Origin: a bacterium
Lineage (GTDB): Bacteria; Bacteroidota; Ignavibacteria; UBA10030
Assembly (NCBI GenBank): GCA_043803945.1
Contig: JAZDJN010000018.1
Location: 1 to 64,000, forward strand
Direction: 5' to 3'
Length of the DNA stretch: 64,000 nucleotides
Positions within the stretch are counted from its first letter, which is position 1; every line of letters starts with the position of its first letter. Below, in pieces: positions 9,598 through 32,610 of the stretch. A program made the translations under genes and the position numbers. The notes beneath the pieces were generated by a model. The model saw only the letters and a program-made list of their open reading frames with translations, did not search any database and had not been told where the DNA came from.

Positions 9598-9705
9598 ATT
9601 AACAAGGGCATCAGAAACCAGTTCCTGACGCATCTATCAGAAAGCCATTCCGTGCTGCAATCACCACATTCTTCTAACCTAAGTCAACGTGGATACGTAT
9701 CGACC
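9598..9705 (-). promoter_or_regulatory. Copy 2 of the ~105-bp 'S' element, ~120 bp upstream of sigma gene 2. The GGAAC -35-like box is present.
   Basis: Alignment with 6847-6950. The GGAACTGG…TTGTTAAT arrangement is visible. Confidence 0.35.
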
Positions 9706-18864: not shown

Positions 18865-19029
18865 TCAGGATTTCTCCTTGGACTCACGGCCGTTTTGCTC
18901 CTTGTAGCCGAACAAACCGAAGAGAGCAAACAAGCCATACAACCCGTACAAAACCGGATTGTCAAGTGTGGAGCCGAGAGAGCCAAGCAAACCAAGAAAT
19001 CCCAGGAACCCGAGCATGTTGAGTTTCAT
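18865..19029 (-). CDS. 54-aa Gly/Leu/Phe-rich small membrane peptide (MKLNMLGFLGFLGLLGSLGS…LYGLYGLFALFGLFGYKEQNGRESKEKS). It is a possible toxin, holin-like or bacteriocin-like peptide.
   Basis: ATG preceded by aaggag at -7. It has two hydrophobic GxxG-repeat segments and a charged tail, and sits 184 bp downstream of the OLD-family gene. Confidence 0.4.
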   Translation of the reverse strand: MKLNMLGFLGFLGLLGSLGSTLDNPVLYGLYGLFALFGLFGYKEQNGRESKEKS

Positions 19030-19275
19030 CGTTTTTCTCCTTTTGATTGTTAGTTGAGAAAATATTCTTTGGGTGCCCGCTGAGCATAACATTTAGGCAA
19101 AACGCCGTCCGCCGAAAGCGGATGGAGTAAGCACTTTGCATTTAGCCAACCTTTGTTTCACCATCGCCTTTCTAGCGTGCAAGCGTTTACCCGCCATGTT
19201 ATACCATTGGGCGGTCCGTTTTGCGTTTGTTATATGTCGCGCATCTGATTGGCGTCAGCCGCGAACTTCAAAGAC

Positions 19276-20808
19276 CTATAGAACGGACTTGATGCTCTGG
19301 CAAAACTGGAGAAGATCGCTTCCCGCGATATCTGGAAGAGACATGGAAGCCAGAATTCGAAAGATCCTTCTCGTACTCTTGAGTTCACCTTTCCACCAGT
19401 CTTCATTGTGAAGCTTGTCTGCAAGTTGACGCCAAGGTGGAACATCGGGATTAATTTTCTCGAGTTGACTTGGGACGATCGAACCGAAGGCCGCGCGAAC
19501 TGCAGCCAGTGTATAGTAGTTCTCTAAGCAGTACCTTGAAAGTTGTATCGGGATTAAACCAATCTTACGGCAATTCGCTATGAATGCATTCTGCGCGGCA
19601 GTGTTGCTGGTGTCAAGATCCAACAACGCGAAGGTGTTTCGAATCTGAACAAATGGAGTAGGGTCGAAATACATCATCATTGATCCAGCAAGAAAGACAT
19701 GAGAAACTGAGGCGCTACGGGATGCTCCTAACCAGTTCCTTACGATATAGTCTATGACAAGCAAATCTGTTTTACCCTCGGTAATGAGAACTGCGTCCGA
19801 GGTCAGGTTATCAATGGCGAGGACTCCAATGTTAGATAAAGCATCTGCACGGCTGGTGTTGTCGTCAATTGTTATCTCACCATTGTCGTATTTGCAGAAG
19901 TATATTCGATCGACCAGATCTGGATTTAGAAAGACGGGCGAGTGGGTCGAAAGAATAAACTGCCGATCTTCAACTGAGTTCAAGAATGAGAGTAGTTTCC
20001 GTTGGAGGTCCGGATGCAAGTGGTTTTCTGGCTCCTCGACAAGCAACAACTGGTTATCACCGTCGAGCGAATAAAGAAGAATTGACAATAGCTCAGGGAG
20101 TCCGAGCCCTTCATTTTGTGCAGGAATCCAGGGACCGCCAATTTTTCTGAACTGTAATTGAATGCCTGGCGGGTGGCGATCCCTGAGCATCTGAATGTCA
20201 AACTCGTTTCCGGTGATGTCGCAAAAACTCGAATGGATTCGGTCGAAGACGAGTCTCTCAGCAGTATCTGGCATTTGGTTCTTCAGATAGAACAGACGGG
20301 ACAATGCGTTTGCGGCCTCAGAGTCCAGGTTTTCCATTGGGTGTGCTTCAGTCTCAGGTGGCAGCCTCCTTTTTGGAGATAGAAGCAGAGGCTTACCGCC
20401 TTCGATCACATGGGAAATTAGTGCGTGTGCAATGCGTTTGGCGTCAATATCAAGACCATATGTCCTCACGAGGGATGTCTGTTTGCACTCGTCGACTAAG
20501 GCCAAGGCCTTGGACTCAGAACTACAGAAGAGTATCTCGCCATCTAGACGGTGCATTATTTTGGCTACCCAATCGTCAATTTCGTGCCGAGAGGGTTGAG
20601 CGTAGTTTGCGATTTGGCCACGTACAACGGATTCTGTCTTGGGCGACTGTTGGTACGTGACTCCAATATCGGTGTATTCAACTATCTTTCTGAGGATGGT
20701 CGATTTACCGCTAGAATTTCTTCCGGTGATAATGTTGACTTTGCCCAAGTCTAAGAGAGTCTGGGATTTTATCACCGGAGATGAGTCGACATGCAGGTGT
20801 TGAATCAT
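19276..20808 (-). CDS. OLD-family nuclease: N-terminal ABC-type ATPase (Walker A GRNSSGKST; Walker B/D-loop LLLVEEPENHLHP) and C-terminal Toprim domain (ITEGKTD … LLDLDTS).
   Basis: 510 aa. The P-loop, ABC signature-like region and Toprim glutamate/DxD motifs were all read directly. Confidence 0.65.
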   Translation of the reverse strand: MIQHLHVDSSPVIKSQTLLDLGKVNIITGRNSSGKSTILRKIVEYTDIGVTYQQSPKTESVVRGQIANYAQPSRHEIDDWVAKIMHRLDGEILFCSSESKALALVDECKQTSLVRTYGLDIDAKRIAHALISHVIEGGKPLLLSPKRRLPPETEAHPMENLDSEAANALSRLFYLKNQMPDTAERLVFDRIHSSFCDITGNEFDIQMLRDRHPPGIQLQFRKIGGPWIPAQNEGLGLPELLSILLYSLDGDNQLLLVEEPENHLHPDLQRKLLSFLNSVEDRQFILSTHSPVFLNPDLVDRIYFCKYDNGEITIDDNTSRADALSNIGVLAIDNLTSDAVLITEGKTDLLVIDYIVRNWLGASRSASVSHVFLAGSMMMYFDPTPFVQIRNTFALLDLDTSNTAAQNAFIANCRKIGLIPIQLSRYCLENYYTLAAVRAAFGSIVPSQLEKINPDVPPWRQLADKLHNEDWWKGELKSTRRIFRILASMSLPDIAGSDLLQFCQSIKSVL

Positions 20809-21011
20809 GATGTTGTGTTTCGTTCTTGATGGTAGATCCGATTTAGATTAACTATCCTTATTTAGATTTCATTTCGACATAACCAAATGAGCGCCTGCCC
20901 GCCATCTTACTGGGCGGGAGCCTGAACACCGAAACGAAGTGTAGGCGGGCGTCGCAAGCACGATTCCTGTTAGCTGGCGTTTGAAGTACACAGCTCGAGA
21001 CATAAAATGTA

Positions 21012-21476
21012 TTAGCGAGCACGAGTAAGCGCGAGTGATATTAGATTCATGGTTATCTGACTGTATTGCATCAGGAAACTCTGTGCTTCATCTAGTTTGT
21101 CGTATCCGAGGGTATTGAAAATGTAATGTACGTGTTCTGAAAATAGCTTTTGTATGCGGAGATCAGGGCTGTAATTCTGAAAAAGTGCTGTGGAAACATG
21201 GGCAGCACATTTTACCATTTCGAGCTCAGGGCTATCTTCGATGAACTCAACCTTGCATTGCAAATAAAGACGCGCATCGAATATAGCCTTAAGCTCATCA
21301 GCTGGCATAACCGAACCAAAGAGATAGCAATCGATCCGCCCTTCGTTTGCGCGATTCACTGGGATAAGTGAATTACAAAGATTCCTGGATAAGAGATCAG
21401 TAGCGATCTGACGCGATAACTGCATAATCTCTGAAGCAGATGCGCTGTCAAGAAATATTTTCACAATCGTATTCAT
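21012..21476 (-). CDS. Hypothetical 154-aa cytoplasmic protein. It lies between the 281-aa gene and the OLD gene.
   Basis: ORF lying 12 bp downstream of the 281-aa ORF. No motif was recognised. Confidence 0.4.
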   Translation of the reverse strand: MNTIVKIFLDSASASEIMQLSRQIATDLLSRNLCNSLIPVNRANEGRIDCYLFGSVMPADELKAIFDARLYLQCKVEFIEDSPELEMVKCAAHVSTALFQNYSPDLRIQKLFSEHVHYIFNTLGYDKLDEAQSFLMQYSQITMNLISLALTRAR

Positions 21477-21488
21477 TTTGATGTTAGC

Positions 21489-22334
21489 TCAATATTGAGG
21501 TTTGGGGGGCTTAATTTTGGAGTATATATGTCCGGTCGCGTAATCATAGAACCAGACTTCCAGAAGTCGTATGTGTAGATTGTAGGTTTGATTGAACCGC
21601 TCAGACGGATTTCGAAACGTCGCACGATGATAATATACATGTGTAGACACGTAGGGTTGGATTGGGACACCTATAAACATTGCGCTAATAGAAGCGCGTT
21701 TGGATCTTGCTTCTTGAGGTGACATGTGAAGACGAAGCAAAAAACACTGCTCGTAGTCTCCCTCTAATGAATCTATTGGTAACTTATCAAGATCAGACAA
21801 TACAAGATCATAGGACATGCTTTCAGTAGAATTGATAGTAACTTTTGCTCCAAATGCATTCGTGGCGGTATATGGTGATATGTTCTTCGATTCAAAAACC
21901 CAGGTGATTGACTTATGATCTGGTGTACTGTCACTGCTGGCTGATGAAAGGATGCACTTTACCGTAAGTATCTGTTGATCTGCATCGTAAGACGGATGAA
22001 CTCGAAAAGCACGAAAAGCCAGGGTACTATTGAAATTGTATGAGCCGAGAATAGGCTTTGCAAGTTCAGCGTGAATCCTTTCGTTAAAATGCACGGTGGT
22101 TTCGAATTCGTCCTTTATCGTTTTTTGAAATCGCTTATCGATAATAGTATAAAGTTGCTTCAAATTGTGTCCATTGAATTTGGGTGGTAGCTTCGAGAGC
22201 GACGTATCAAAAGTCATTGTGGAATATTTCGAAGCTATATTGGCGAAACGTGACTGAGAGTGTGCAAGCAGGTGATATGTACATACGAACACTATCAGGA
22301 TTCCAGATTGTAATGCAAGAACTGATCGTCGCAT
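21489..22334 (-). CDS. Hypothetical 281-aa exported or membrane-anchored protein.
   Basis: N-terminal hydrophobic segment (GILIVFVCTYHLLA). No family was recognised. Confidence 0.4.
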   Translation of the reverse strand: MRRSVLALQSGILIVFVCTYHLLAHSQSRFANIASKYSTMTFDTSLSKLPPKFNGHNLKQLYTIIDKRFQKTIKDEFETTVHFNERIHAELAKPILGSYNFNSTLAFRAFRVHPSYDADQQILTVKCILSSASSDSTPDHKSITWVFESKNISPYTATNAFGAKVTINSTESMSYDLVLSDLDKLPIDSLEGDYEQCFLLRLHMSPQEARSKRASISAMFIGVPIQPYVSTHVYYHRATFRNPSERFNQTYNLHIRLLEVWFYDYATGHIYSKIKPPKPQY

Positions 22335-22503
22335 TTATGGTCCTTGGTCGATTTTATTATCTATGTGAAAACCTTCCACTGCAAATGCCAGCTACGGCAA
22401 TTACGCACTGCGTCTTTGCACAATCCGTGGAGAGAAAAAACTCGGAGCATGTATTTCTTCTCCATGATGACATGGACGCCTCAATGTGCTTGGTGTATGT
22501 TAG

Positions 22504-22576
22504 TAGATCGAATCTCTTCGGTTACGAAGGCGGTGCCTTCTCTCGGTGTGCATCATCCAACCAGTTCCCCCATCTA
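22504..22576. repeat. Copy A (5' core only, ~70 bp) of a recurring non-coding element: tagatcgaatctcttcggttacgaaggcggtgccttctctcggtgtgcatcatccaaccagttcccccatc.
   Basis: About 90% identical to the first 70 bp of the copies at 23335 and 29022. It abuts the methyltransferase stop codon and lies 170 bp 5' of the 281-aa gene. Confidence 0.8.
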
Positions 22577-23257
22577 GCGGGAAACCATCTCACAAAAGAG
22601 GCTCGATTCATCTACTTCAACTATTGTCGTATTTACTCTAAGCCCTGTGGTGAGCGCAAGGAAACGATCTCGTCCTATTGTGGAAGCTGTAAATCCATCC
22701 TTGCAAACGATCAGCCCGTTCCCGGTCTTGTCAAAGTCGATTTCTCCCACGAGTCCGACCTCCGATTGTCGACGAAACCATTCGAGCCGGTATTCCCAGA
22801 ACTTGTCCGAGTAGCTTGAGAACAGGATGGTTCCGCCATGCCTGGCCACTCGAATGCTCTCCCGGAGAAGATGTTCCTGGTCGGCGTGGAAAGCCGATAC
22901 CCCGTTCTGGATGCAGATGACAACATCAAAAATTCCATCACGAAAAGAAAGCTGTGCCGCATCCATTTGGATCAAGAAACAGTTTGATGTACCGGGGAGT
23001 GATTCCTGACCATGCAGCAAACTGGAAATGGAGGTATCAATTCCCACAACCCATCGAGCTTTTTTGGCGAGTGAAGGAATTATCCGTCCGTAGCCACATC
23101 CTAATTCAAGCACCAGGTCGACTGCTCTGATCCTGTCGAGAACAAAGTTGAGCTCTGCCTCAAGATATTGTTTAACACGTTGCGGGGCAATGTCGTAGCA
23201 ACATTGCAGCCGTTCTGCGGAGAGTCTCTCAATGTAGTAATCATTCATACGACTCAT
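22574..23257 (-). CDS. Class I SAM-dependent methyltransferase (small-molecule type).
   Basis: 227 aa. Motif I is LELGCGYG and the post-I acidic residue is GIDTS. No DPPY/NPPW DNA-methyltransferase motif is present. Confidence 0.75.
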   Translation of the reverse strand: MSRMNDYYIERLSAERLQCCYDIAPQRVKQYLEAELNFVLDRIRAVDLVLELGCGYGRIIPSLAKKARWVVGIDTSISSLLHGQESLPGTSNCFLIQMDAAQLSFRDGIFDVVICIQNGVSAFHADQEHLLRESIRVARHGGTILFSSYSDKFWEYRLEWFRRQSEVGLVGEIDFDKTGNGLIVCKDGFTASTIGRDRFLALTTGLRVNTTIVEVDESSLFCEMVSR

Positions 23258-23334
23258 TTCTCACAACGTCTGTGTTCGCTGTTTTAAGACGGGGATGCCC
23301 GGTTGATCATAAATACGCTGTTGTCTTTTAATAG

Positions 23335-23568
23335 ATTACATCCATTCGGTTGCGAAGGGAGAACCTTCTCTCGGTGTGCATCATCCAACCCGTTCCCCCA
23401 TTAAACGATACATGATACTCTGCAACGTTAGCAGAATTGGGGGAGATTGTCAAGAAAATAGAAAAGGAGAAGCATGAAGTAGAAAGATTACAGAAGGCAG
23501 ATTGCAGCAAGCAGACCGTAGAAAGCAATGTCCGCCACACTTTTTGGCGGAGACATGAAGTGTGAAGC
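23335..23568. repeat. Copy B (full length, ~235 bp) of the recurring element. The 5' core is followed by a ccagttccccca/tgggggag long-range pairing, the motif agtagaaagattacagaaggcagattgcagcaagcagaccgtagaaagc, and the hairpin tccgcc-acacttttt-ggcgga.
   Basis: About 90% identical to 29022-29258 over its full length. It lies 78 bp 5' of the methyltransferase gene. Confidence 0.85.
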
Positions 23569-23702
23569 GGGTAGATGGATGCTCAACCTTGCCTGTCACA
23601 GACGCCAGGAATATACCTTGTCTCTTTCCCCTCTTGTCATGCCAGCGTAGGCTGGCATCCAGATAAAGGGCACTATAAAAGAAATCTTTTACAAAAACAT
23701 AT

Positions 23703-23746
23703 CCGGATTCCGGCTGCCTCGCGGGCGGGCCGGAATGACATTTTTT
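23703..23746. repeat. REP-like hairpin ggattccggc-tgcctcgcgggcgg-gccggaatgac followed by TTTTTT. It is the same family as 17986-18052 and 44646-44676, in inverted orientation. It could act as a terminator.
   Basis: Direct reading. The shared stems are GTCATTCCGGC and GCCGGAATCC. Confidence 0.55.
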
Positions 23747-23864
23747 CTCTTTCCCGTTCCCCAATTGAGAACGCCGTGTGAAAGGCTCCACTTTACATAT
23801 CTAAAGAATATTCCACGTCCGATATTTGTTCGGAAAAACAGTATAGAGAGAATTCGAAAAGCAC

Positions 23865-25493
23865 TTATTTCTGAATACTCTTTTCCTCTCCCTGAGCGAC
23901 CACTCTCATCGGCTGCTGCCTGTTACCAAGCTCCGTTGTTATTTCATAGACAAGCTGTGTGAGCTTTTGCATCTTCTCGAAATCGATATTCTCCGCATCG
24001 TCTGTAGGACGGTGAAGGTCATCGTGCCGGCCGGAAAAGAAAAATGCAACGGGTATGCCCTGCCGGTGGAAGCTCATATGATCGCTTCCAGCCATCGAAC
24101 GATCCTCCGAATCGAAATCAAGCGGCCAGTTCACCGTGACACTGTTGACGCTGTCAATCAACCTTCTCAACTCCGGATTCGTTTTGTCCGATCCGATCAC
24201 GTAATGCCTTCGCGATTGCTGGGACCCGGGGTCCGAGCGGCCAATCATATCGAGATTCACATTTACAGTAATGTTCTTTACGGGGAAAGGGCAGTTGGCA
24301 ACAAAATATCGTGAACCAAGAAGCCCCGACTCTTCCGCCGTGTACAAGCAGAAGAGCACCGGCCTCCGCGGCGGCTTCTGAGCAATAGCTTTTGCAACTT
24401 CGAGTACACCGATGCTTCCGCTTGCATTGTCGTCGGCACCGTTGCAGATCTGCCCATTGAGCGACTTCACATGGTCGAGGTGAGCGCCAAGCGTTATATA
24501 TTCATTCGCAACGGCACCGTCCCTTCCTGGAACCATGCCCACAACATTCATGCTCTCAAATTCTTCACCGGCGGTTTTCAATCCAAGACTGATTTTTACA
24601 TCAGCCAGATCGAAGGATTGATATCCCTTCAATCCTTCTTTTTCAATATCATGCGGATTATACCGCTGGTTGCTAAACAGTGTTTTTACGAGCGTTCCTT
24701 TTATTATTCCAATCATCGCGGGACCCGGCGGAAGCGTAAGCGGTTGATCCTTTGGTTTAGAGACAATCTGCAGTGTGTTGAATGCATCGTTCAACATGTT
24801 CCATTGTGCCGTATGTTCTGTATCGGCGATCACGAATACCGCAGCAGGCATGTTCTGCCGGAAGAAGGGGCTCGAGAGAATTTTTTTGCGGGTCCCCATG
24901 AGTGAGGCATAACTGTTCTGCACGCTGTCAGGAAAGATGTTTTTACCGTCGCGTCGCGGTGCTCCCATCAGAAGCAGAACAACCTTCCCTTTAACCTCCA
25001 CATTCTGAAGATCATTCCAGCCATAATCGGGCTCAGAAATACCGTATCCGACAAACACGGCAGGGATATTCGTCAGGGATGGCCCGCGTGCCTGAAGCCT
25101 GAGGTCTTCGAGCGTCTGGAACACTCTCTCACCGGCTGCCGTTGTAATCGTCAGCGGTTCATCAACGACTGTTCTTACCTTCACAAGCGGCACCATCTGG
25201 AAATAGGTCTCGTTGCCATTGGCATCTTTGATGACCGGTTTTACTCCGGCTGCTTTCAATTGATCTGCGGTGTACTGTGCAGCGATTGTAAATCCTCTGT
25301 CGTCGGGGCGGCGGCCGCCGAGCGAATCGGCGGCAAGAATGAACATATGCTTTTTCAGTTCCTGCAGTGTGATCGTGCTGGCTTTCGACTGAGCATTCAA
25401 CGCCTGGAAGGGGACAAGGATTATCACAAGCAGAATCGCCATCAGCGATATGCTTCCCAGGGTTGTTGTCAACCTAAATTTTCGATTGCACAT
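23865..25493 (-). CDS. M28-family peptidase with a PA (protease-associated) domain, secreted.
   Basis: ATG at 25493 preceded by aggagg. Signal peptide present. The zinc aminopeptidase motifs HLDH and NGADDNASG, plus ES and a distal H, are typical of M28. Confidence 0.75.
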   Translation of the reverse strand: MCNRKFRLTTTLGSISLMAILLVIILVPFQALNAQSKASTITLQELKKHMFILAADSLGGRRPDDRGFTIAAQYTADQLKAAGVKPVIKDANGNETYFQMVPLVKVRTVVDEPLTITTAAGERVFQTLEDLRLQARGPSLTNIPAVFVGYGISEPDYGWNDLQNVEVKGKVVLLLMGAPRRDGKNIFPDSVQNSYASLMGTRKKILSSPFFRQNMPAAVFVIADTEHTAQWNMLNDAFNTLQIVSKPKDQPLTLPPGPAMIGIIKGTLVKTLFSNQRYNPHDIEKEGLKGYQSFDLADVKISLGLKTAGEEFESMNVVGMVPGRDGAVANEYITLGAHLDHVKSLNGQICNGADDNASGSIGVLEVAKAIAQKPPRRPVLFCLYTAEESGLLGSRYFVANCPFPVKNITVNVNLDMIGRSDPGSQQSRRHYVIGSDKTNPELRRLIDSVNSVTVNWPLDFDSEDRSMAGSDHMSFHRQGIPVAFFFSGRHDDLHRPTDDAENIDFEKMQKLTQLVYEITTELGNRQQPMRVVAQGEEKSIQK

Positions 25494-25859
25494 GGTGAAT
25501 CCTCCTGACATGGTATGGATGATTGGGGCCGATACTATGAATAGGCGCGTCGTTCTATTAAATAGAATACGCTGTCTCCTAAGACGGGTTTTCAAATGGG
25601 TAAGTTTCAAGGACGCCGGGTGAGGAGGATAGATGGTACAGAACCACGGTTCAGCGGTACAAAGTGGCGGTGTTTTTCTCGTTCTTGACATTTCTCGTTC
25701 CCAAACTCCGTTTGGGAACGCAGACTGAAAAGCTCTGCTTTACCAATCAAACAGCTAATTGTTACTTATGTTCAGAATAATACAGGCGGAGCTTGATAGG
25801 CATCATTTAATAGCAGAGTGTTTGCGCGAGAGAAATAATGGAGGTCGTATTATTTGTTT

Positions 25860-26075
25860 TTCTACCTTGTTCCTTCCCTTGGCAAACTTTTTCCATTGTT
25901 GTAGCATCTCCATTGTTTAGAGATGTCTGGATAAATGATGTAGATATCGTCAAATAGTGCCTATCACAGGCTTTTCGTTTTGCCGATAGTTGATAAGTTT
26001 AGTTCTTCTGTTGGGTCTTGAGTCTTGTCATGAGAATGGGGTATCCACAAATGTTCTTCCTGACTACAATTGCAG
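25860..26075 (-). pseudogene. Degraded partial copy of the 5' region and first ~60 codons of the 18277-18699 gene. It carries a premature stop at codon 7.
   Basis: About 75% nucleotide identity to 18540-18735, including the upstream non-coding stretch. The frame is interrupted by TGA. Confidence 0.6.
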
Positions 26076-26111
26076 ATAATACAAAGCTTTACAACGTGGC
26101 TGTGCTATCAG

Positions 26112-26894
26112 TTAGGCAACATCAAGCCTAAGCGCTAACTGGGTTAGGGCAAGACCACCCAGGTACCATATGCCCATTTCTCTTGCATATGCTTTTGCTA
26201 ATGGATGAAAATCTGAGGTCGTCCAAAATGCAAAAACAATTGGTTGAAGAGAGCCGACCTTCGAAGCATATGTTCTCTTAAGCAAAAAGGCCCTTCTTGT
26301 CGCTGATCCAATAAATTCTCGAACGTCTTTCTCGGTGATGTTATTTCCTGTTGCATATCGCTTAGCCTGACCAATTACTACTGCAAAAGCACCAGACGGT
26401 GCAGGACCGAAACGTGATAATGGAAGTTCGAAGCCAGTGAAATCAACTCCCTGATCATATGGTCCGCCCTCAACAATCGCCTTCGCACCAAGGGAATCAA
26501 GAATTCGTTTACAGAAATGTTCAAACTCTATTGGGGATCCTTTTTGAAGTTGGTTAAGAAGAATAATCTCGGGCCTATCGAGAATTTTGAAGTGTGTTGT
26601 AGAACCTTCGAGCGTAACAATAAATCGTGCTGTAATTCCGTCTGTGAGATTTTGATTAGTGATTGCATCGAGTTCGTGCACAATAAATGGCTCGATATGC
26701 TCAGATAATTCCGAGATTTCTTCAATAGATTTGCTAATTAATTTTGTACTCAAGGTTTCAAAAATAACGTTTCTCAATGATTTAAATTCTGTGTTTGAAG
26801 CCTGATCTGAAATCCAGAGTGCAACATCTTGGGGTCTAGGATCAGCCATACTATTCTCCAATAAGTCGTATTCTGTCTTCGAATACTCTCTCAA
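26112..26894 (-). CDS. Mrr-like restriction endonuclease domain protein. The C-terminus has PD-(D/E)xK features (GGPYDQGVDFTGFE … VVIGQAKRY). The N-terminal ~130 aa are of unknown function.
   Basis: 260 aa. The motifs resemble the Mrr catalytic domain. It overlaps the upstream ParB-like gene by 44 bp. Confidence 0.55.
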   Translation of the reverse strand: MREYSKTEYDLLENSMADPRPQDVALWISDQASNTEFKSLRNVIFETLSTKLISKSIEEISELSEHIEPFIVHELDAITNQNLTDGITARFIVTLEGSTTHFKILDRPEIILLNQLQKGSPIEFEHFCKRILDSLGAKAIVEGGPYDQGVDFTGFELPLSRFGPAPSGAFAVVIGQAKRYATGNNITEKDVREFIGSATRRAFLLKRTYASKVGSLQPIVFAFWTTSDFHPLAKAYAREMGIWYLGGLALTQLALRLDVA

Positions 26895-27960
26895 TTCGAT
26901 TTTTCAGAGAAGTCAAAGCAGCAATATCTTCTTCGCTTAGAGATCGTAATGAATCGGGCGATAGGGTTGCTAATACCGCTTGAGCCTGAATAATGGTTGG
27001 TTGCCAATCTTCTTGATGTTCAGCTTCAAATCGACCAAGCGCTCTTTCAATAGTACCGCCTTGAGAGCGAAATAGTGCCATTGCAACTTCATCATCAATA
27101 AATATTCCAAGTGATCTAACGCTTTTTGCTTCAGGCAGTTTGGGATCTCCTAACTCACCGTCATCGTCAGGTTCTCCAACCATCCAACTATAAAACTCTC
27201 TGAGATGAGAAGCGTTAGTAAAACGTCGTTCGTTGTCGCTCCAACTGAGCCATTCGCGTACGTTCGCTCGTTTGAAAACTTCTTCGAAATAACTATACTT
27301 ACGTGGAATAGCATATTCACTAAACTCATCATCTGCTTGCATTTGCTCGAGTGCTAGGTACGATCTCCAAAGTTGATTCGCTGTACGAGTAGAGAGTCCT
27401 AAACTTTGGCCAGCTTCCTGTGGACCTACACCTGCTTCACGTAATACGTGAACTGTACGAGCCTTTTGATAAGCACCCCATTCTTTGATACCTGATACAT
27501 GTCGTAATCCAGGAAGAATCCACTTTGCTGAGTCTGGTGCTTGATTGTCGTCGAGGACAAGAACTTCTAGATCGGTAAAATTGATAATTTGTTCGTCATC
27601 AAATGTTTCTCTACCTGTCTCGTGAAGTTCGATTAGCCATTTAAGGGCCGAAATTCTCCTATTGCCTTCGATGACAACAAATTTTTGTGCGTCGGGATTG
27701 CCGTGCCATGGACGCACAACAATTCTATCCATTGGAAGAAATCCTAGAGTTTTTATTGTATCTCTAAGCTCCGTGACTTCAAAATTCCCGCTTTTCATCC
27801 TCTCAAATGTATCACGCTGTACTCTATCCTCTGAAAATCGAATCTCTGGAACCACATCAACTGGTTCACCAAGCTCAGCAAAACGTGGATTGTTAGGATC
27901 CAATAACAGAGTATTTAAATTAACGCGTCTTGGTATCATAAGGCTATAAAGATTTTGCAT
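26851..27960 (-). CDS. ParB/Srx-like nuclease-domain protein (N-terminus) with an HTH-like segment and a C-terminal extension.
   Basis: 369 aa. VIEGNRRISALKWL fits the ParB N-terminal GxxRxxA box. GQSLGLSTRTANQLWR is HTH-like. Confidence 0.5.
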   Translation of the reverse strand: MQNLYSLMIPRRVNLNTLLLDPNNPRFAELGEPVDVVPEIRFSEDRVQRDTFERMKSGNFEVTELRDTIKTLGFLPMDRIVVRPWHGNPDAQKFVVIEGNRRISALKWLIELHETGRETFDDEQIINFTDLEVLVLDDNQAPDSAKWILPGLRHVSGIKEWGAYQKARTVHVLREAGVGPQEAGQSLGLSTRTANQLWRSYLALEQMQADDEFSEYAIPRKYSYFEEVFKRANVREWLSWSDNERRFTNASHLREFYSWMVGEPDDDGELGDPKLPEAKSVRSLGIFIDDEVAMALFRSQGGTIERALGRFEAEHQEDWQPTIIQAQAVLATLSPDSLRSLSEEDIAALTSLKNRIERVFEDRIRLIGE

Positions 27961-28124
27961 AATGTTCCTCTAATAAATTGTGAGTATTAATAAATTCTTT
28001 TGAGCACACCGTCAAATAACGTCTGGCACAAATTCAATAATATTATTATTCACAAAGTGACCCTCGGTGATGCATTTGTTAGAAAGCGTTTGCGAGTCAA
28101 CGCTCTGATAATTATTTCCCCTTC

Positions 28125-28823
28125 TCACTTTACTTTCCCGTGGTGATATCGCTGCCACGGTGTCTCTTTTGTGAGTTTATGAAGATGAGCGGCAACCCGG
28201 TTGTTTGAAATAACTGCTAAACGTATAATAAAGCCAAGATGATATTTAATTACTGACTTGTGAACCCTCTTCGTGGTTGAAACACGATGTGCAATACTGC
28301 CTCTCAAAGTAATTAGATCTGAAAGTTTCTTCTGTGACTTTTGAAAAGTCATATTAAACCAGTGCCAGTTTTCAGACAAACGTGAATAGCCAATGAGGTT
28401 CTCAAATAGGTGGTCGATCATATCGGCGCGAGGTGTATTAAAATTGTTAATGTACCGTCCAAGAGTCTCTTCCTTATGATCATTTAAGATTTTGATCCAA
28501 CCTTTTCCAGCTAGCTTCCAAACCAAGCGCTCATCAGCAGCAGATTTCAATTCTTTCGAAGCTAAGACTAAAATCTTGCTTGGGAATACATCGGGTTTCT
28601 TGGCTTTTACTAAAAGAAATTCAAAAGCAGCCTTACCGAGATCCTCAATATAGGCTTCCCAACATGCAACCAGAAGTACTACACAACTTTTATTGATTAC
28701 TTCAACCTTAGATTTATAGCCAGGCTTTTTCCCAGATATCTGCTCATGGATATCAAGCAGCCTCCTTACTTCTTTTAGATTCTGGCGAAGGTTCTCTATG
28801 TGGGTGATGTGCTTGCTTATCAT
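28125..28823 (-). CDS. Candidate HEPN-domain protein (abortive-infection-like), with an R-x4-H-R motif (LRGSIAHRVS).
   Basis: 232 aa, all-alpha-like composition. The Rx4H motif lies in the C-terminal third. The call rests on the motif only. Confidence 0.35.
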   Translation of the reverse strand: MISKHITHIENLRQNLKEVRRLLDIHEQISGKKPGYKSKVEVINKSCVVLLVACWEAYIEDLGKAAFEFLLVKAKKPDVFPSKILVLASKELKSAADERLVWKLAGKGWIKILNDHKEETLGRYINNFNTPRADMIDHLFENLIGYSRLSENWHWFNMTFQKSQKKLSDLITLRGSIAHRVSTTKRVHKSVIKYHLGFIIRLAVISNNRVAAHLHKLTKETPWQRYHHGKVK

Positions 28824-29021
28824 ACGTTACACGAAAAAATATTTCTTACTCACCGTATCGAAACAAACAGCAAACGATACCATAAAAACGAATTGACCTC
28901 ATTCCATCTAAATCAGCATGAAATACAAAGAGCACCCATGGCTCCTCTTTGTAGTGAAAGACGGTCTACTATTATCCGTTCTACAGAACGGCATAATTGC
29001 CTATGCGTAATTTGCTTACTT

Positions 29022-29258
29022 TTTAGATCGAATCTCTTCGGTTGCGAAGGCGGCGCCTTCTCTCGGTGTGCATCATCCAACCAGTTCCCCCATCAAACGC
29101 TACATGATACTCTGCAACGTTAGCAGAATTGGGGGAGAATGTCAAGAGAATGGAAAAGGAGAAGCAGGAAGTAGAAAGATTACAGAAGGCAGATTGCAGC
29201 AAGCAGACCGTAGAAAGCAATGTCCGCCACACTTTTTGGCGGAAACATGAGGTGTGAA
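29022..29258. repeat. Copy C (full length) of the recurring ~235-bp element.
   Basis: About 90% identical to 23335-23568. It lies 46 bp 3' of the ORF6N gene end and ~200 bp 5' of the HEPN-like gene. Confidence 0.85.
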
Positions 29259-29303
29259 TCTGGCAGTGTTTGAGAGGGAAAATCTTTTCAATGCAGCTAT
29301 AGA

Positions 29304-29825
29304 TTAATTGCTTTCCAGCCCGAATCCAATTGGGCGTCTCTTCGGCTCAGGAGGTTTCATAAGTTCGCGAATCGCTTCGAATACTATTTTAAATTGCACG
29401 TCATATTTTCTTTCTAATTCATTCAGCTTGTGAGCTAAGTTTTCATGCGTGGCAAGTATTTGACGCAGATGCACAAACGTACGCATGATTTCAATATTCA
29501 CTCTGATTGCACGCTTACTCCTCAAGACGCTTGAAAGCATTGCGACTCCTTGCTCGGTAAACGCGTAGGGAATGGCTCTGCGAAGACCACCCCAACTTGA
29601 AGTCACAATCTGTGATTTCAACGTAAGGAACTCTTCCGAGGATAATTGGAACATAAAATCGATCGGAAAACGGTCAGCGTTTCGTTTCACTGCCTGAACC
29701 AACACGCGTGGCGCAACCTGGTATAATCGGGCCAGGTCTGTGCTGAGCATGACCTTCTCACCACGCAGGAAATAGATACGTTGTTCGATTCTTTCCTTCG
29801 ATAAAATAGACTGTTTTGTTTTCAT
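29304..29825 (-). CDS. ORF6N-domain protein (KilA-N-related DNA-binding domain, often phage or mobile-element associated).
   Basis: 173 aa. [43 protein letters not shown] … [20 protein letters not shown] matches the ORF6N domain. Confidence 0.7.
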
Positions 29826-30016
29826 CGACGTTCATTGACCTCTCATTATTATCCTATGGTGAGATCCGTTTCGCTGGATTCAACTGACCCTAATAAATCG
29901 CAGTTGCCTCTCCGTCCAATATGATATGGGCATATCGATTATGAACACTCTCCGGCTATATCTCCAGAGTGGTATAGAAATCTAAATGCTGTGTTTTTGT
30001 CTTTTGAGAATGATTT

Positions 30017-30090
30017 ATTCGGTTGCGCGGGTGTCAGTTTCTCTCGGTGTGCACCATCCAACCAGTTCCCCATCAAACGCTACACGATGC
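30017..30090. repeat. Copy D (5' core only, diverged) of the recurring element, ~190 bp 5' of the ORF6N gene.
   Basis: ttcggttgcg…tttctctcggtgtgcaccatccaaccagttccccatcaaacgctaca aligns with the cores of copies A–C. Confidence 0.7.
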
Positions 30091-30282
30091 TGAATAATGA
30101 TAGGAGAAAACAAAGCCAATGTTAAGATCACCGCAACAGAGATCGTTAAGAAAGTTTTCTATAGTTACCCGGTTTGAAGGCTCTGGCCACCCGCGTTCGC
30201 GGGTGAAACACGTTCCTCTTTGGTTTTCATCTATTTTTTCTCTAAACTTTCGCCAACAACATCAACTTGGAAAGGATGCCTC

Positions 30283-32415
30283 ATGCTTAAGCGCGTATTC
30301 ATCATTTCACTTGTTCTCGTTTCTCTTCTCCTCCAGCTTATGCTTGCCGATGAGGGGATGTACCCCATCAGTGCGTTATTGAAACTCAACCTGAAAGCAA
30401 AAGGACTGAAGATCGATGTGAAAGACTTGTATAACCCTAAGGGCGGCAGCCTGATTGAAGCGATTGTTCACCTTGGCGGCTGCACCGGATCGTTCGTGTC
30501 GAAAGACGGATTGATCATTACCAATCATCATTGTGTATTCGGAGCCGTCTCCGCAATCAGCACAGCGGAAAAAGACTACCTCACGAATGGTTTCCTCGCT
30601 AAAACCCGCACAGAGGAAATTGCCGCCCGGGGACTCACAGCCCGCATTACCGAACAGATTAAGGATGTCTCAAAAGAGGTGTTGACCGTAGTGAAGCCGG
30701 ATATGGATCCGCTGGAACGATCGAAAGCCATTGAAAACAAGATCCGCGAGCTGACAACACAGGGCGAGAAAGATCACCCCGGAAAAAGCATAAGCATCTC
30801 CGAGATGCTCGCAGGGAAGTCATATGTGATGTTCATTTCCACAATGCTTCGTGATGTGCGGTTGGTCTATGTTCCGCCCCGTGCCATCGGAGAGTTTGGC
30901 GGCGAGAATGATAACTGGGTCTGGCCGCGTCATACCGGTGACTTTTCTTTTGTTCGCGCTTACGTTGGACCGGATGGAAAACCTGCAGCTTACTCTGAAA
31001 AGAATGTCCCCTACAATCCCAAACGGCATTTGAAAGTCAATTCCAAAGGTGTTAATGAAGAAGATTTTGTCTTCATCCTCGGCTATCCCGGCAGAACGTT
31101 CCGCCACCAAACGTCGTACTATATGGCCTACGAAGAACTGTTGCGTATGCCTTTCATTGCCAACCTCTATGAGTGGCAGATCAACACAATGGAGGAACTG
31201 AGCAAGGTAAGCCGTGCCGTGGCATTGAAGCACGACTCCCGCATCAAGGGGCTCGCGAACACCATGAAGAATTACAAAGGAAAGATCGTCGGCATGAAGC
31301 GCATGCAGCTTGTTGCGAAGAAGGCCGAAGAAGAGAAGGCACTGCAGCTCTTTATTGAAGCCGATGCAAAACGGAAAGCGACGTACGGTACCGTGCTCGA
31401 GCAGGTCAAGAAGATTTACGACGAGATGTCCGCACATGCACAGTACGATCTGGTGCTTGACAACCTGGCAAGCTTGTTCCCATTCCGCACGGCAACGAGC
31501 GTCAACGAAGCTTCACAGCGTGCACAGGGACGCGATTCGTCCGGAGCACGCGGCGGCGGAAGGCGCGGGGGTGGAGGAGACACTTTTGCAGCCTATTATG
31601 AGAAAACTGAAAAACTTTTCCTGAAAAAATTGCTTTCGCTGGCGGCACAACTCCCACAGAACGAACGTATTGCTCCCATTGATGAAGCACTGGGCGGGAA
31701 TTTTTCAGAACAGGCCATTGACCAGTTCGTTGAGCAATCGTTTGCTGCAACAACGCTCTTTACCCCCGATGGCCTGTCCAATGCCATGGGAATGAAAGCA
31801 GAGGAACTTGAGAAGTTGAACGATCCATTCGTCAAGATTGCCAAAGGGCTTGCTCCTTTGTCACAAAAACTCCACGATGTTCGTTCGCGCCGAACCGCCG
31901 AGCTTTCAAAACTCTCCGCATTGCTCGTCGATGTGAAACAGCAATTTCTGAAGAAGGATTTTATCCCCGATGCCAATAGCACGCTCCGGTTTACCTTCGG
32001 GCACATTCGCGGTTATAGTCCCGCCGATGCAACATACTACGCACCGATCACCACTCTGAAGGGCGTTATCGAAAAGACCACTGGCGAGGAGCCCTTCGTC
32101 ACCCCGCAGAAATCGCTTGAGTTGTATAAAGTAAAAGATTTCGGGCAGTTCAAACATTCCAAACTCAATGATGTGCCGGTGGCAATCCTCTACGATATGG
32201 ATACCACGGGTGGTAATTCCGGCAGTCCGGTGATGAATGCCAGGGGTGAACTGGTTGGCGTTAACTTCGATCGTGCATTCGAAGCAACCATCAACGATTA
32301 TGCTTGGAGCGAATCGTACAGCCGTTCAATTGCCGTCGATATCCGGTACGTGCTTTGGGTAACCGAAAAGGTTGGTGGAGCAAAGTTTATACTAGAGGAG
32401 GTTGGCGTAAAGTAA
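30283..32415 (+). CDS. S46-family dipeptidyl-peptidase (DPP7/DPP11-like serine peptidase), secreted.
   Basis: ATG at 30283 followed by a signal peptide. DEGMYP and GGCTGSFVSKDGLIITNHHC match the S46 N-terminus. The C-terminal serine region GGNSGSPV is present. Confidence 0.8.
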   Translation: MLKRVFIISLVLVSLLLQLMLADEGMYPISALLKLNLKAKGLKIDVKDLYNPKGGSLIEAIVHLGGCTGSFVSKDGLIITNHHCVFGAVSAISTAEKDYLTNGFLAKTRTEEIAARGLTARITEQIKDVSKEVLTVVKPDMDPLERSKAIENKIRELTTQGEKDHPGKSISISEMLAGKSYVMFISTMLRDVRLVYVPPRAIGEFGGENDNWVWPRHTGDFSFVRAYVGPDGKPAAYSEKNVPYNPKRHLKVNSKGVNEEDFVFILGYPGRTFRHQTSYYMAYEELLRMPFIANLYEWQINTMEELSKVSRAVALKHDSRIKGLANTMKNYKGKIVGMKRMQLVAKKAEEEKALQLFIEADAKRKATYGTVLEQVKKIYDEMSAHAQYDLVLDNLASLFPFRTATSVNEASQRAQGRDSSGARGGGRRGGGGDTFAAYYEKTEKLFLKKLLSLAAQLPQNERIAPIDEALGGNFSEQAIDQFVEQSFAATTLFTPDGLSNAMGMKAEELEKLNDPFVKIAKGLAPLSQKLHDVRSRRTAELSKLSALLVDVKQQFLKKDFIPDANSTLRFTFGHIRGYSPADATYYAPITTLKGVIEKTTGEEPFVTPQKSLELYKVKDFGQFKHSKLNDVPVAILYDMDTTGGNSGSPVMNARGELVGVNFDRAFEATINDYAWSESYSRSIAVDIRYVLWVTEKVGGAKFILEEVGVK

Positions 32416-32610
32416 TTGATGTATGTTGATTTTCGATTGACTATGTCTGATTGACAGTTCAATGAAAGAACAAAACACCGATGACACTGATACAACGAGA
32501 TTTTCACGGATTTTCTATCTGTGACAATCTCGTGCTTATTCTTAGTTATCTGTGTTCTAATGTCAAGGATAACTGATTATAATAATGACCGTCCGTTAGG
32601 AGAACCTATC

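Follow-up and report, generated by a model that had tools for sequence, protein, structure and literature searches.

Short conserved non-coding sequences in the 5′ untranslated regions of functionally related, non-homologous operons are exemplified by the JUMPstart/ops elements, which are 8-39 nt long and recruit a NusG paralogue (RfaH or UpxY). The element described here resembles them as a short non-coding sequence recurring 5′ of several non-homologous units in one genome, but it has no sequence similarity to them, and no RfaH/UpxY-type factor is encoded in the window, the whole 64-kb stretch of DNA that was analysed. REP and BIME sequences are likewise lineage-specific intergenic repeats with small hairpins; REPs, however, are palindromic, dispersed, present in both orientations and usually 3′ of genes, whereas the present element lacks symmetry, forms a cluster and stands 5′ of genes in every case.

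Putative mobile promoters (PMPs) are sequences of at least 50 nt and at least 80% identity found upstream of coding sequences with no homology to one another in one genome (Matus-Garcia et al. 2012, PMC3488235). PMP families are small, with a conserved core, and many are species-specific and resemble neither riboswitches nor insertion sequences (PMC3488235). PMP is an operational class and not a mechanism, and the copies described here fall within its sequence definition in length, identity, unrelated downstream coding sequences, small family size, possession of a core, restricted occurrence and no resemblance to a riboswitch or insertion sequence. They differ in that PMPs are defined at -50 to -150 of the start codon while three of the present cores lie at -170 to -290, and in being clustered at one locus, before consecutive units, with clear recombination junctions. 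Integron attC sites, CALIN arrays and Vibrio VCR repeats (Cury et al. 2016, PMC4889954) offer a further parallel, being same-strand, species-specific repeats between gene-sized accessory or defence modules whose ORFs have homologues elsewhere that lack the repeat; such repeats may start at or near a stop codon and do not require a nearby integrase. Unlike attC sites, the present element has no R/L boxes, palindromic single-strand fold or IntI. Integron cassettes are usually promoterless with attC at their 3′ end, whereas the present repeats stand 5′ of long leaders, two of them with promoter-like motifs, and one interval between them is a mixed 5.7-kb segment.

The host is an uncultured Ignavibacteria-like genome, and the repeat is confined to a variable region of the window. 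Four direct copies, c1 to c4, lie within 7.6 kb; the other 56 kb contain none, and a search of the 64 kb with nhmmer and a covariance model found no fifth copy.

22504-22579, minus strand, copy c1, core only: block B, the variable 11 nt, CGTAACCGAA and a 13-nt tail
23332-23574, minus strand, copy c2, full 243-nt form: segment A and core
29024-29266, minus strand, copy c3, full 243-nt form
30005-30092, minus strand, copy c4, diverged, with only the ~70-nt core kept

The original prediction had placed four direct copies near these coordinates and is borne out, the invariant 25-mer GGTTGGATGRTGCACACCGAGAGAA occurring four times at no more than three mismatches against 0.00 expected (100 shuffles). 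The direct repeats are spaced by 981, 5692 and 828 nt. The predicted distance of 80-200 bp to the downstream unit is about right, the 3′ edges of the copies being 74-200 nt from the start codons that follow them. The further claim that every copy abuts the preceding unit holds for c1, placed between the methyltransferase stop codon (22574-22576; 2 nt away) and the 281-aa gene (start 22334, 169 nt on), and for c3, which is 37 nt 3′ of the ORF6N stop and 200 nt 5′ of the HEPN (RiboL-PSP) gene. The claim fails for c2, situated 290 nt beyond the M28 peptidase stop and 74 nt 5′ of the methyltransferase ATG (23257), and for c4, which lies 179 nt 5′ of ORF6N in a divergent intergenic region beside the S46 peptidase gene (plus strand, 30220). 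As predicted, the copies head four consecutive minus-strand units of unrelated genes, the downstream genes belonging to different Pfam families. Several other intergenic repeat families also occur in the window, one of them a 62-nt tandem unit at 1-270, 3627-3673 and 6667-6798.

The island is flanked by g782 (9843-12191) and S46 (30220-32415), which are adjacent in more than 15 relatives. Of the genes in the originally described defence-like island, the methyltransferase and the M28 peptidase have no obvious role in defence.

22574-23257, minus strand, class I SAM methyltransferase of the small-molecule type, between c2 and c1
29304-29825, minus strand, ORF6N / PDC-S05 gene, between c4 and c3; 79% nucleotide homology to orthologues, within the ORF
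26112-28823, minus strand, cargo block X, 3′ of c3; GC3 0.28-0.39 against ~0.55 in host-like genes
28125-28823, minus strand, HEPN RiboL-PSP gene, block X
26851-27960, minus strand, PDC-M38A/ParB-like gene, block X
26112-26894, minus strand, Mrr_cat gene, block X
25865-26041, minus strand, DUF3788 pseudogene fragment, residues 4-62 at 54% identity with two in-frame stops, 3′ side of block X
18865-22334, minus strand, cargo block Y, 3′ of c1
21489-22334, minus strand, 281-aa gene, block Y
21012-21476, minus strand, 154-aa gene, block Y
19276-20808, minus strand, AAA_21/OLD-like ATPase, block Y
18865-19092, minus strand, small hydrophobic ORF, block Y
18277-18699, intact DUF3788 gene, 3′ side of the 281/154/ATPase block

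The 281-aa and 154-aa genes of block Y have a GC3 of 0.38-0.42. Given cargo values of 0.28-0.42 against ~0.55 in host-like genes, we propose that the cargo is foreign and that some units were horizontally acquired. Each low-GC3 block is bracketed by one copy and by a DUF3788 gene or a pseudogene fragment of its 5′ region; neither the island's left edge nor the stretch beyond block Y has a copy. The c3-c2 interval (5.7 kb) contains foreign genes, the pseudogene fragment and a host-like M28 peptidase gene, with no copy between. A DDE transposase gene is also present in the window, 13 kb away. The methyltransferase is 84% identical in nucleotides to its orthologues over the ORF and a few flanking nucleotides; this homology stops at 22572, 2 nt past the stop codon, where c1 begins and replaces a 55-nt flank conserved in the orthologues. 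Homologue loci of the methyltransferase and ORF6N elsewhere lack the element, which, with homology confined to the ORFs, supports a host-side origin for it. A copy was found neither in related loci (1.38 Mb) nor in plasmids or phages, and exact-pattern scans of collections of genomes, metagenomes and viruses gave none; the element is most likely lineage-specific and otherwise unknown.

The predicted extent of the element stands for the core, common to all copies, and for the full form in c2 and c3 only; the flanks of c4 show no significant similarity to those of c2 and c3. Only block B (37 nt), 11 variable nucleotides, CGCAACCGAA and a short tail are shared by all four; a further 12-15 nt 5′ of B are common to c2, c3 and c4, forming a 49-nt block with it.

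29058-29094 (c3), minus strand, block B, near-invariant over its 37 nt, GATGGGGGAACTGGTTGGATGATGCACACCGAGAGAA; any two copies agree at 33-37 of the 37 positions
22538-22574 (c1), 23366-23402 (c2) and 30039-30074 (c4), minus strand, block B in the other copies
29037-29046 (c3), 23345-23354 (c2) and 30018-30027 (c4), minus strand, second conserved block CGCAACCGAA
22517-22526 (c1), minus strand, second conserved block, variant CGTAACCGAA

The 11-nt variable stretch between B and CGCAACCGAA carries a GAAGG..CCTTC hairpin in c1-c3. Copies c2 and c3 are 91% identical overall; the 160-nt upstream segment A, present only in these two, is identical at 151 of 160 positions, against only about 86% for the stretch that begins just 5′ of B and runs to the element's 3′ end. 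Copy c1 is 97% identical to c3 over 71 nt, and c3 is a mosaic whose 5′ part resembles c2 (94%) and whose 3′ part resembles c1 (B 37/37, tail 13/13). In c4 the core matches c3 at 35 of 36 positions (~95% over the core), with a 1-nt deletion in a G-run, and both flanks are at background similarity. We propose that the part under constraint is the ~70-nt core, comprising the 12-15 nt, B, the 11 variable nucleotides and CGCAACCGAA. The three copies c1-c3, at 86-97% identity, say little about constraint; the argument draws on only one diverged copy, c4, among four from a single genome.

Promoter-like and terminator-like motifs lie upstream of the core in three copies.

29117-29145 (c3), minus strand, sigma70-like hexamer pair TTGACA-N17-TAACGT with TGc before the -10 (extended -10-like); a consensus match only
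23425-23453 (c2), minus strand, hexamer pair TTGACA-N17-(TGc)TAACGT; a consensus match only
30097-30125 (c4), minus strand, hexamer pair TTAACA-N17-TATCAT, at the same distance to B as in c2 and c3
29223-29243 (c3) and 23531-23551 (c2), minus strand, segment A's 5′-end hairpin TCCGCCAAAAAGTGTGGCGGA, terminator-like
30188-30205 (c4), minus strand, upstream hairpin CACCCGCGAACGCGGGTG, different from that of c2 and c3, in a flank not significantly alignable to theirs

The c4 pair scores 10/12, among the best in an 11-kb scan, while promoter-like matches across the region are no commoner than in shuffles and the -10 hexamer TAACGT of c2 and c3 is weak. The region upstream of the c4 core is not demonstrably homologous to segment A of c2 and c3, so the shared hexamer-B spacing could be due to chance. 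Conservation of TTGGCT-N17-TAAACT upstream of S46 in relatives makes sigma70-like promoters plausible in the lineage. Copy c1 has neither such a promoter nor segment A; its core would therefore lie inside a methyltransferase-281 co-transcript, or be a relic. The shared promoter or leader role originally suggested is plausible but unproven.

We tentatively favour, at somewhat less than even confidence, a lineage-specific, propagated promoter/5′-leader module that belongs with the putative mobile promoters and doubles as a recombination tract. The four copies would be paralogues of one non-coding upstream module, which recombination within the locus copied before unrelated transcription units, some of them horizontally acquired. 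In c2, c3 and c4, transcription would start from the sigma70-like promoter ~15 nt upstream of the core, and a long 5′ leader of 115-270 nt would open with the core as its initial ~70 nt; the core may equally well be a promoter-proximal operator acting on DNA. An ancestral copy of the c3 kind appears to have been divided into c2 and c1 by insertion of the methyltransferase ORF.

Other roles for the core were weighed against this module. Block B could itself be an ECF-type alternative-sigma promoter with GGAAC, present inside B in all copies, as the -35, placing all four units under a stress sigma; this would account for c1 keeping B without segment A. The 10-mer GGAACTGGTT recurs at 9616-9625, within the conserved element that precedes an ECF sigma gene of the window, where GTTAA at N17 after it fits an ECF-like promoter. 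However, at 16-17 nt B offers no -10 of the GTT or CGT type (CGAGA, the nearest, is at N18), the same 10-mer also occurs in a coding region (19730-19739), similarity between B and the sigma-upstream element is marginal (one of eight pairs significant, partly within the methyltransferase coding sequence), and the conserved stretch is far longer than a promoter needs, making this quite improbable. It is improbable as well that the 5′ leaders contain, in the core, a structured cis-acting RNA such as a riboswitch, attenuator, ribozyme or processing site. In c2, c3 and c4, GUAGCGUUUGAU and GUUGGAUGRUGCAC are predicted to pair as a G·U-rich hairpin that begins, on its 5′ side, where the conserved block has its left edge. 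Of the four substitutions in this hairpin's region, three are at unpaired positions or change G·U to A-U and one breaks a weak apical pair; the c4 deletion falls in the loop. The stem of a second hairpin is kept in c2 while its loop differs, and an alternative GGUUG:CAACC pairing can form; c1, however, lacks the 5′ strand of the first hairpin and c4 lacks the second. The conserved pairing potential claimed originally stands for GAAGGC..GCCTTC in c1-c3 and TCCGCC..GGCGGA in c2 and c3, but neither these nor ttccccca..tgggggag occur in c4, which has the CACCCGCGAACGCGGGTG hairpin in the region roughly corresponding to TCCGCC..GGCGGA. Folds are no more stable than those of shuffled sequences (the core has z -0.4 to -1.2 and entire leaders -1.3 to +0.2), and RNAalifold gives a consensus energy of only -8.6 kcal/mol, its covariation term being unfavourable, four copies being too few sequences for a covariation test. 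An Rfam scan, proposed earlier as a check, matched no family at gathering thresholds and only chance eukaryotic families at E≤10. A small protein or leader peptide is highly improbable. A 69-aa ORF is open in c3 and a 70-aa ORF in c2, and by reading, each of the four copies has an ATG in the corresponding position, 10 nt downstream of a G-rich stretch, that opens a 7-18-codon ORF from ATGRTGCACACCGAGAGAA (M-M/V-H-T-E-R...). The 21 differences between c2 and c3 are nevertheless spread evenly over codon positions in all six frames, with non-synonymous changes far outnumbering synonymous ones (12 versus 4 codons in the long frame, without third-position excess), and the c4 deletion shifts the long frame, and in c4 the short frame stops after seven codons. 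The codon-position pattern and the c4 frameshift largely refute the 70-aa ORF as coding, in line with the original view of the element as non-coding. A Pfam search gave no match, and among 1.84 billion proteins only five matched, all repetitive proteins aligned through one 12-residue motif.

The remaining alternatives concern how the copies arose. A site-specific recombination site, CALIN-like or an att-like cassette boundary, with its recombinase elsewhere in the genome and promoter activity secondary, would suit the gene-sized modules bracketed by direct repeats, the ORF-sized methyltransferase and ORF6N pieces whose homology elsewhere ends at the ORF ends, the start of c1 2 nt past a stop codon (as attC sites often do), the mosaic copies with sharp identity breakpoints and the synteny break with low-GC3 cargo; integrase-less attC clusters are common, and integrons occur in related Chlorobi (PMC4889954). 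Yet the Pfam-scanned ORFs of the window (all listed of at least 150 aa and a few shorter) include no tyrosine or serine recombinase or integrase, only the one DDE transposase. By reading, the copies hold no attC R″(RYYYAAC)...R′(GTTRRRY) pair, their sole inverted pair, GGTTG..CAACC, being in the opposite order; single-stranded DNA folds are no better than shuffles (z -0.5 to +1.3), the mixed c3-c2 interval has no internal copy, copies are missing at the left edge and after block Y, and a simple crossover inside B is at odds with the substitutions seen in c2 and c1. Such a site is distinctly unlikely, and the integron-like or att site as originally proposed, with no R″/R′ pair, attC-like hairpin, recombinase among the scanned ORFs or left-edge copy, lacks support in that form. 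The mosaic structure and sharp junctions are nonetheless real recombination signatures, and a weaker idea still stands in which the copies bound the cargo that is exchanged. A miniature transposable element (MITE, REP or PATE-like) is barely credible: the repeat is short and intergenic, its 243-nt form carries small hairpins towards the two ends, and the window holds a transposase gene, but the copy ends on reading have no terminal inverted repeats or target-site duplications, c2/c3 homology fades without a sharp stop, all copies share one orientation within 7.6 kb, and nothing similar lies beside the transposase or elsewhere in the window. It is also unlikely, though a real contender, that segmental duplication, gene conversion and illegitimate joins in a region that changes fast gave rise to the copies as a by-product without function, with the c4 core a short conversion tract. 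The 86-97% identity of c1-c3, the DUF3788 fragment as duplication and decay in the same region, the further intergenic repeat families and the lack of homologues in the related loci and collections scanned are all compatible with this. Against it stand the single orientation and similar distance to a downstream start codon of all four copies, and the conserved block of c4 between flanks at background similarity, where conversion would have had only the block itself to start from. Moreover, the 11-nt stretch has diverged while both sides are intact, which looks like constraint and not like one conversion tract.

A propagated promoter/leader module is not a new kind of machine. Whether as leader or as operator, the core would give the ORF6N, HEPN/ParB-like/Mrr, methyltransferase and 281/154/ATPase units one common cis-regulatory input, and the near-identical tracts would provide portable homology, so that cargo may be inserted or swapped beside the copies.

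The original prediction placed four direct copies of a non-coding element in this region, and a repeat search recovered all four, each on the minus strand:

22504-22579, minus strand, copy c1
23332-23574, minus strand, copy c2
29024-29266, minus strand, copy c3
from 30005, minus strand, copy c4

The 25-mer GGTTGGATGRTGCACACCGAGAGAA has four matches at no more than three mismatches, all on the minus strand (0.00 in shuffled sequence). No fifth copy was found in the 64-kb window by nhmmer with core and long-form profiles, by self-BLAST of the window or with a covariance model. The element is thus real, and its copies cluster: all four fall within 7.6 kb, and the remaining 56 kb has none. In the self-BLAST, c1 and c3 are 97% identical over 71 nt, c2 and c3 91% over 250 nt, c3 and c4 82% over 93 nt, c1 and c2 82% over 83 nt, and c2 and c4 80% over 76 nt; compared as units of 243 nt each, c2 and c3 are likewise 91% identical. 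As had been claimed, the copies share one orientation and lie 5' of minus-strand starts. The measured distance to the start codon is 74-200 nt: c1 is 169 nt from the 281-aa gene, c2 74 nt from the methyltransferase gene, c3 200 nt from the HEPN gene, and c4 179 nt from the ORF6N gene.

Conservation among the copies varies from segment to segment, here given from 5' to 3':

Segment A, about 160 nt: 151/160 between c2 and c3; not in c1; about 52% in c4, which is background and not significant
Pre-B, 12-15 nt: common to c2, c3 and c4
Block B, GATGGGGGAACTGGTTGGATGATGCACACCGAGAGAA, 37 nt: 33-37/37 for each pair of copies
Variable stretch, 11 nt: c1 against c3 10/11; c2 against c3 7/11; c4 3-4/11
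Block CGCAACCGAA, 10 nt: 9-10/10
Tail, 13 nt: c1 and c3 the same (13/13); c2 8/13; c4 4/13

Within segment A lie a terminator-like hairpin (TCCGCCAAAAAGTGTGGCGGA) and a TTGACA-N17-TAACGT motif with a preceding TG. On the 3' side of the tail, every pair of copies is at background similarity. The part common to all four copies is therefore a core of about 70 nt. The full element of 235 bp described earlier is present in c2 and c3, whereas c1 and c4 have only the core. A likeness of c4 to c2 and c3 over segment A and the downstream leader was considered and is not significant.

The copies lie in a stretch with no counterpart at the same place in related genomes. The source is an uncultured bacterium resembling Ignavibacteria; the S46 peptidase next to the island has its best identity, 64%, to Ignavibacteriaceae MAGs. 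In more than 15 relatives, a 782-aa gene without Pfam match (g782, at 9843-12191 in the window) is followed directly by S46 and then S9 (S46 and S9 being 30220-33690 in the window); fetched loci with this contiguous order include L001, L002, L005, L028, L057-L059, L068, L069, L077, L079, L082, and L084. In the window 18 kb separates g782 from S46, a stretch that is therefore lineage-specific. It contains plus-strand genes of host-like character (PGA_cap, a 606-aa ORF, and SPFH) and an accessory block, all on the minus strand, in this order:

c4, then ORF6N (PDC-S05)
c3, then HEPN RiboL-PSP, the PDC-M38A/ParB-like gene and Mrr
25865-26041, DUF3788 pseudogene fragment
23865-25691, M28 peptidase
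c2, then class I SAM methyltransferase
c1, then the 281-aa gene, the 154-aa gene and an AAA_21/OLD-like ATPase
18865-19092, small hydrophobic ORF
18277-18699, intact DUF3788 gene

GC3 is about 0.55-0.59 in the host-like genes g782, SPFH, DUF3788, M28, S46, and S9, 0.28-0.39 in HEPN, ParB-like and Mrr, and 0.38-0.42 in the 281-aa and 154-aa genes. The element thus heads host-like genes and compositionally foreign cargo alike.

Several features of the block itself may be recorded here. The 369-aa ParB-like ORF (26851-27960, minus strand) matches positions 10-361 of the 715 in PADLOC profile PDC-M38A, the first half only, and overlaps the Mrr_cat ORF (26112-26894, minus strand) by 44 nt; the pair may represent one two-domain gene that has been split or frameshifted. 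The M28 ORF has a 66-codon N-terminal extension ahead of a signal-peptide-like MCNRKFRLTTTLGSISLMAILL...; translation probably begins near 25493 instead, and the non-coding stretch ahead of the gene would then measure about 620 nt. In the 290 nt from the M28 stop to c2 (23575-23864) there are two strong GC-rich hairpins, TTCCGGC...GCCGGAA and ATGCCAGC..GCTGGCAT, which look like terminators or REP-like elements. The ORF at 18865-19092, between the OLD-like ATPase and DUF3788, encodes 75 Gly/Leu-rich residues behind a good AAGGAG ribosome-binding site and has no significant Pfam match.

On sequence evidence, the element appears to be non-coding, in agreement with the original prediction. The 21 differences between c2 and c3 ignore codon position (6-9 per position in all six frames), codon changes are non-synonymous in 12-15 cases against 2-5 synonymous, c4 has a 1-nt deletion in B, and translations of the element have no Pfam match. 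Searched exhaustively with HMMER, 1.84 billion proteins gave five matches. All are highly repetitive proteins, and each match arises many times via one motif of about 12 residues resembling Y-x-V-S-x-N-G-G-x-G-W, so we judge them spurious. A small protein or leader peptide is accordingly given hardly any probability.

The predicted conserved pairing held up only in part. Folds of the cores (z -0.4 to -1.2) and of the whole leaders (z -1.3 to +0.2) are no better than those of shuffled sequence, the same is true of single-stranded DNA folds of both strands of c2, c3, and c4 (z -0.50 to +1.31), and the GAAGG(C)..(G)CCTTC hairpin formed from the variable stretch in c1, c2, and c3 is missing from c4. 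The RNAalifold consensus of -8.6 kcal/mol is weak, and its covariation term is unfavourable. Most of the few substitutions among the four sequences are compatible with one predicted G·U-rich hairpin, in which pre-B pairs with the 3' part of B. The suggested Rfam check returned no known RNA family: there are no matches in the whole window at gathering thresholds, and at E<=10 only chance eukaryotic snoRNA and lncRNA families in 22300-30300. The core is not detectably structured, and we regard a structured RNA as improbable. A type III toxin-antitoxin RNA, which would consist of short tandem repeats just ahead of its toxin gene, was rejected, there being no tandem array in the 22-30 kb region, only single copies 0.8-5.7 kb apart.

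The copies c4 and c3 differ unevenly along their length. Their cores are 95% identical, both flanks are at background and the 11-nt inner stretch has diverged; this contrast is the main evidence suggesting that the core is under constraint. Promoter-like hexamers accompany it: c2 and c3 have TTGACA-N17-(TGc)TAACGT, and c4 has TTAACA-N17-TATCAT at an equal distance from B, a hexamer pair that scores 10/12 and is among the best in an 11-kb scan. Against these stand a weak -10 hexamer in c2 and c3, the absence of a promoter segment from c1, and a frequency of promoter consensus matches in the region that is not above that in shuffles. Taken together, the constraint, the position and the hexamers lead us to favour, tentatively and at a little under an even chance, a promoter or 5'-leader module that has been propagated. 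The core would then form the first 70 nt or so of the transcripts, or a promoter-proximal operator, and through it the four units would share a common regulatory input; the copies may double as a homology tract for cargo exchange. That the adjacent ORF6N, a predicted DNA-binding protein, is the regulator of the core is speculation.

Promoters of the sigma70 type are plausible in this lineage because relatives conserve the motif CCATTGGCTTTTCGACAAAAATTAGATAAACT (TTGGCT-N17-TAAACT) about 40-80 nt upstream of the S46 start, as seen in L001, L002, L079, and L084. The S46 strand of the window lacks this motif; the 10-mer CATTGGCTTT lies inside c4 on the opposite strand. No Bacteroidetes-type TAnnTTTG promoter occurs in the element, nor do genes in the window show upstream enrichment of that motif. 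A sigma54 -24/-12 motif in B was rejected for a spacing one nucleotide short. An ECF-type promoter in B is quite improbable: B and the sequence upstream of the ECF sigma genes of the window share a 10-mer (GGAACTGGTT), and the similarity between the two is only marginal. These two paralogous genes (5883-6422 and 8909-9475, minus strand) are each followed by a Pfam-less ORF of 518-527 aa. Their common 90-nt upstream element, 79% identical between 6847-6936 and 9598-9687, has an ECF-like GGAAC-N17-GTTAA in the latter copy and GGAAG at the corresponding position in the former.

The junctions between the element and its cargo carry signs of recombination. The methyltransferase gene is 84% identical in nucleotide sequence to genes in the fetched loci L052 and L053, and ORF6N 79% to genes in L048-L051; homology is confined to the ORF for ORF6N, and to the ORF plus a few extra nucleotides for the methyltransferase. 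Near the closest ORF6N, methyltransferase and HEPN homologues the element is absent and the neighbourhoods are unrelated. Three methyltransferase orthologues from other metagenomes conserve a 3' flank of about 55 nt right after the stop codon (ATTAAnAGnGGAAAACTnATC...GCCCACTTCGCATAA), although the genes downstream differ:

L052, 5021-5080, 3' flank of the methyltransferase orthologue
L053, 1942-2000, 3' flank of the methyltransferase orthologue
L055, 876-930, 3' flank of the methyltransferase orthologue

The window lacks this flank, and B begins 2 nt past its methyltransferase stop. The lost flank and the abrupt start of B mark the left edge of c1 as a true recombination junction. An apparent likeness of c1 to the 3' flanks of the methyltransferase orthologues in a MAFFT alignment was rejected as no better than shuffled background. 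At the junctions the element belongs with the host genome and not with the imported genes.

The copies are also mosaic, c3 resembling a fusion of the 5' part of c2 with the 3' part of c1. In the simplest history that we infer, a c3-like copy (segment A and core) would have stood ahead of the 281-aa unit; a diverged core with its leader and the methyltransferase ORF would then have been inserted just 5' of B, splitting the copy into c2 and c1. One crossover inside B does not explain where the c2-specific substitutions lie. Site-specific integration is one possibility; homologous replacement from a related array, or an illegitimate join, is equally likely. Each of the two low-GC3 cargo blocks is bracketed by a copy of the element at its 5' end and by a DUF3788 5' region at its 3' end. 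The DUF3788 fragment (25865-26041, minus strand), between Mrr and M28, covers residues 4-62 at 54% amino acid identity with two in-frame stops, and about 70 nt upstream of it are also homologous to the sequence upstream of the intact gene. Such like bracketing suggests a duplicated two-sided slot with different cargo.

Several alternatives to a propagated promoter or leader were weighed. A functionless relic of duplication and conversion is one; given the contrast between c4 and c3, we consider it unlikely. A site-specific recombination site, to which the junction at c1 could point, is a somewhat weaker candidate still: the Pfam-scanned ORFs of the window (every listed ORF of 150 aa or more and a few shorter ones) include no tyrosine or serine recombinase. 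Neither a dif/Xer-like site nor a LexA-box-like motif was recognised. The sole mobility gene among the scanned ORFs is a DDE (DDE_5/DDE_Tnp_1) transposase (43511-44593, plus strand), which adjoins genes for type IX secretion sorting domain proteins. A tRNA/tmRNA att island was rejected, as the 64-kb window has no tRNA or tmRNA gene. A miniature transposable element is very improbable; the copies are clustered in the window in one orientation, as opposed to the dispersal of MITE and REP sequences, their homology fades at the ends, and neither terminal inverted repeats nor target-site duplications were seen there.

The original prediction also offered an integron-like array, and comparison with attC arrays upholds the layout without the defining sequence features. 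Clusters of attC sites lacking integrases (CALIN) comprise at least two same-strand sites clustered within about 4 kb, and each attC site is an imperfect palindrome of R'' (RYYYAAC), R' (GTTRRRY) and L boxes (PMC4889954). Here too, same-strand repeats lie between gene-sized accessory modules, cargo homology ends with the ORF, and one repeat begins at a stop codon. All four copies are on one strand, at spacings of 828 and 981 nt but also of 5692 nt. By contrast, one interval is a mixed one of 5.7 kb, the element has a single GTTGGAT with no upstream RYYYAAC, its sole inverted pair (GGTTG...CAACC) is GTT-first, and it lacks a stable single-stranded DNA hairpin. The window also differs from a complete integron in having no integrase among its Pfam-scanned ORFs. 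Conceivably, the core is the landing or exchange site of an undescribed Ignavibacteria gene-cassette system, unlike integron attC, that doubles as an expression signal; we think this improbable. Bare ORFs and small defence operons would then be placed behind a promoter or leader supplied by the host, by a recombinase encoded elsewhere or by homologous exchange between strains.

Putative mobile promoters are a closer match. These are stretches of 50 nt or longer, sharing 80% identity or more, that precede non-homologous CDSs in one genome, with an assumed promoter window of -50 to -150 from the start codon (PMC3488235). The copies are 80-97% identical over 71-250 nt, the downstream genes belong to different Pfam families or none, and the flanking CDSs give no self-BLAST alignment with one another. 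The c2 core spans about -75 to -160, whereas the c1, c3, and c4 cores, at -170 to -290, are beyond that window. Judged on its sequence, the element is probably best filed as a new case of the known propagated promoter or leader families, and the signatures of recombination around it are clear.

So far the searches have turned up no relative of the element. Exact or IUPAC pattern scans did not find its core in genome, metagenome and viral contig collections, and the element was not found in 99 related or gene-linked loci totalling 1.38 Mb (blastn, nhmmer and a covariance model) or in plasmid and phage collections (distant blastn). L052, an Ignavibacteria-like contig, has a 43-nt element of its own (2438-2480, 3480-3522, and 4255-4297) that recurs 5' of three genes in a row, the last of which is the methyltransferase orthologue; in this group, local repetition of upstream elements may be common. 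The window itself has a second intergenic repeat family, rich in CCTTCCGAAGG palindromes, at 1-270, 3627-3673, and 6667-6798. At the window start it forms a tandem array of a 62-nt unit (4.3 copies, 96% matches), and related copies lie 3' of a tricorn-like protease gene and 5' of an ECF sigma gene.

Known so far from one metagenome-assembled genome, the element touches no long-standing open question. If the promoter or leader reading is true, it would show clearly, on a small scale, how accessory and defence genes come to be expressed once acquired: a host-specific module copied ahead of them would place unrelated systems under one control, and its copies would also provide homology for further cargo exchange. 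The inner boundaries of such a variable region would be set by a regulatory repeat, and not by core genes or an integrase.
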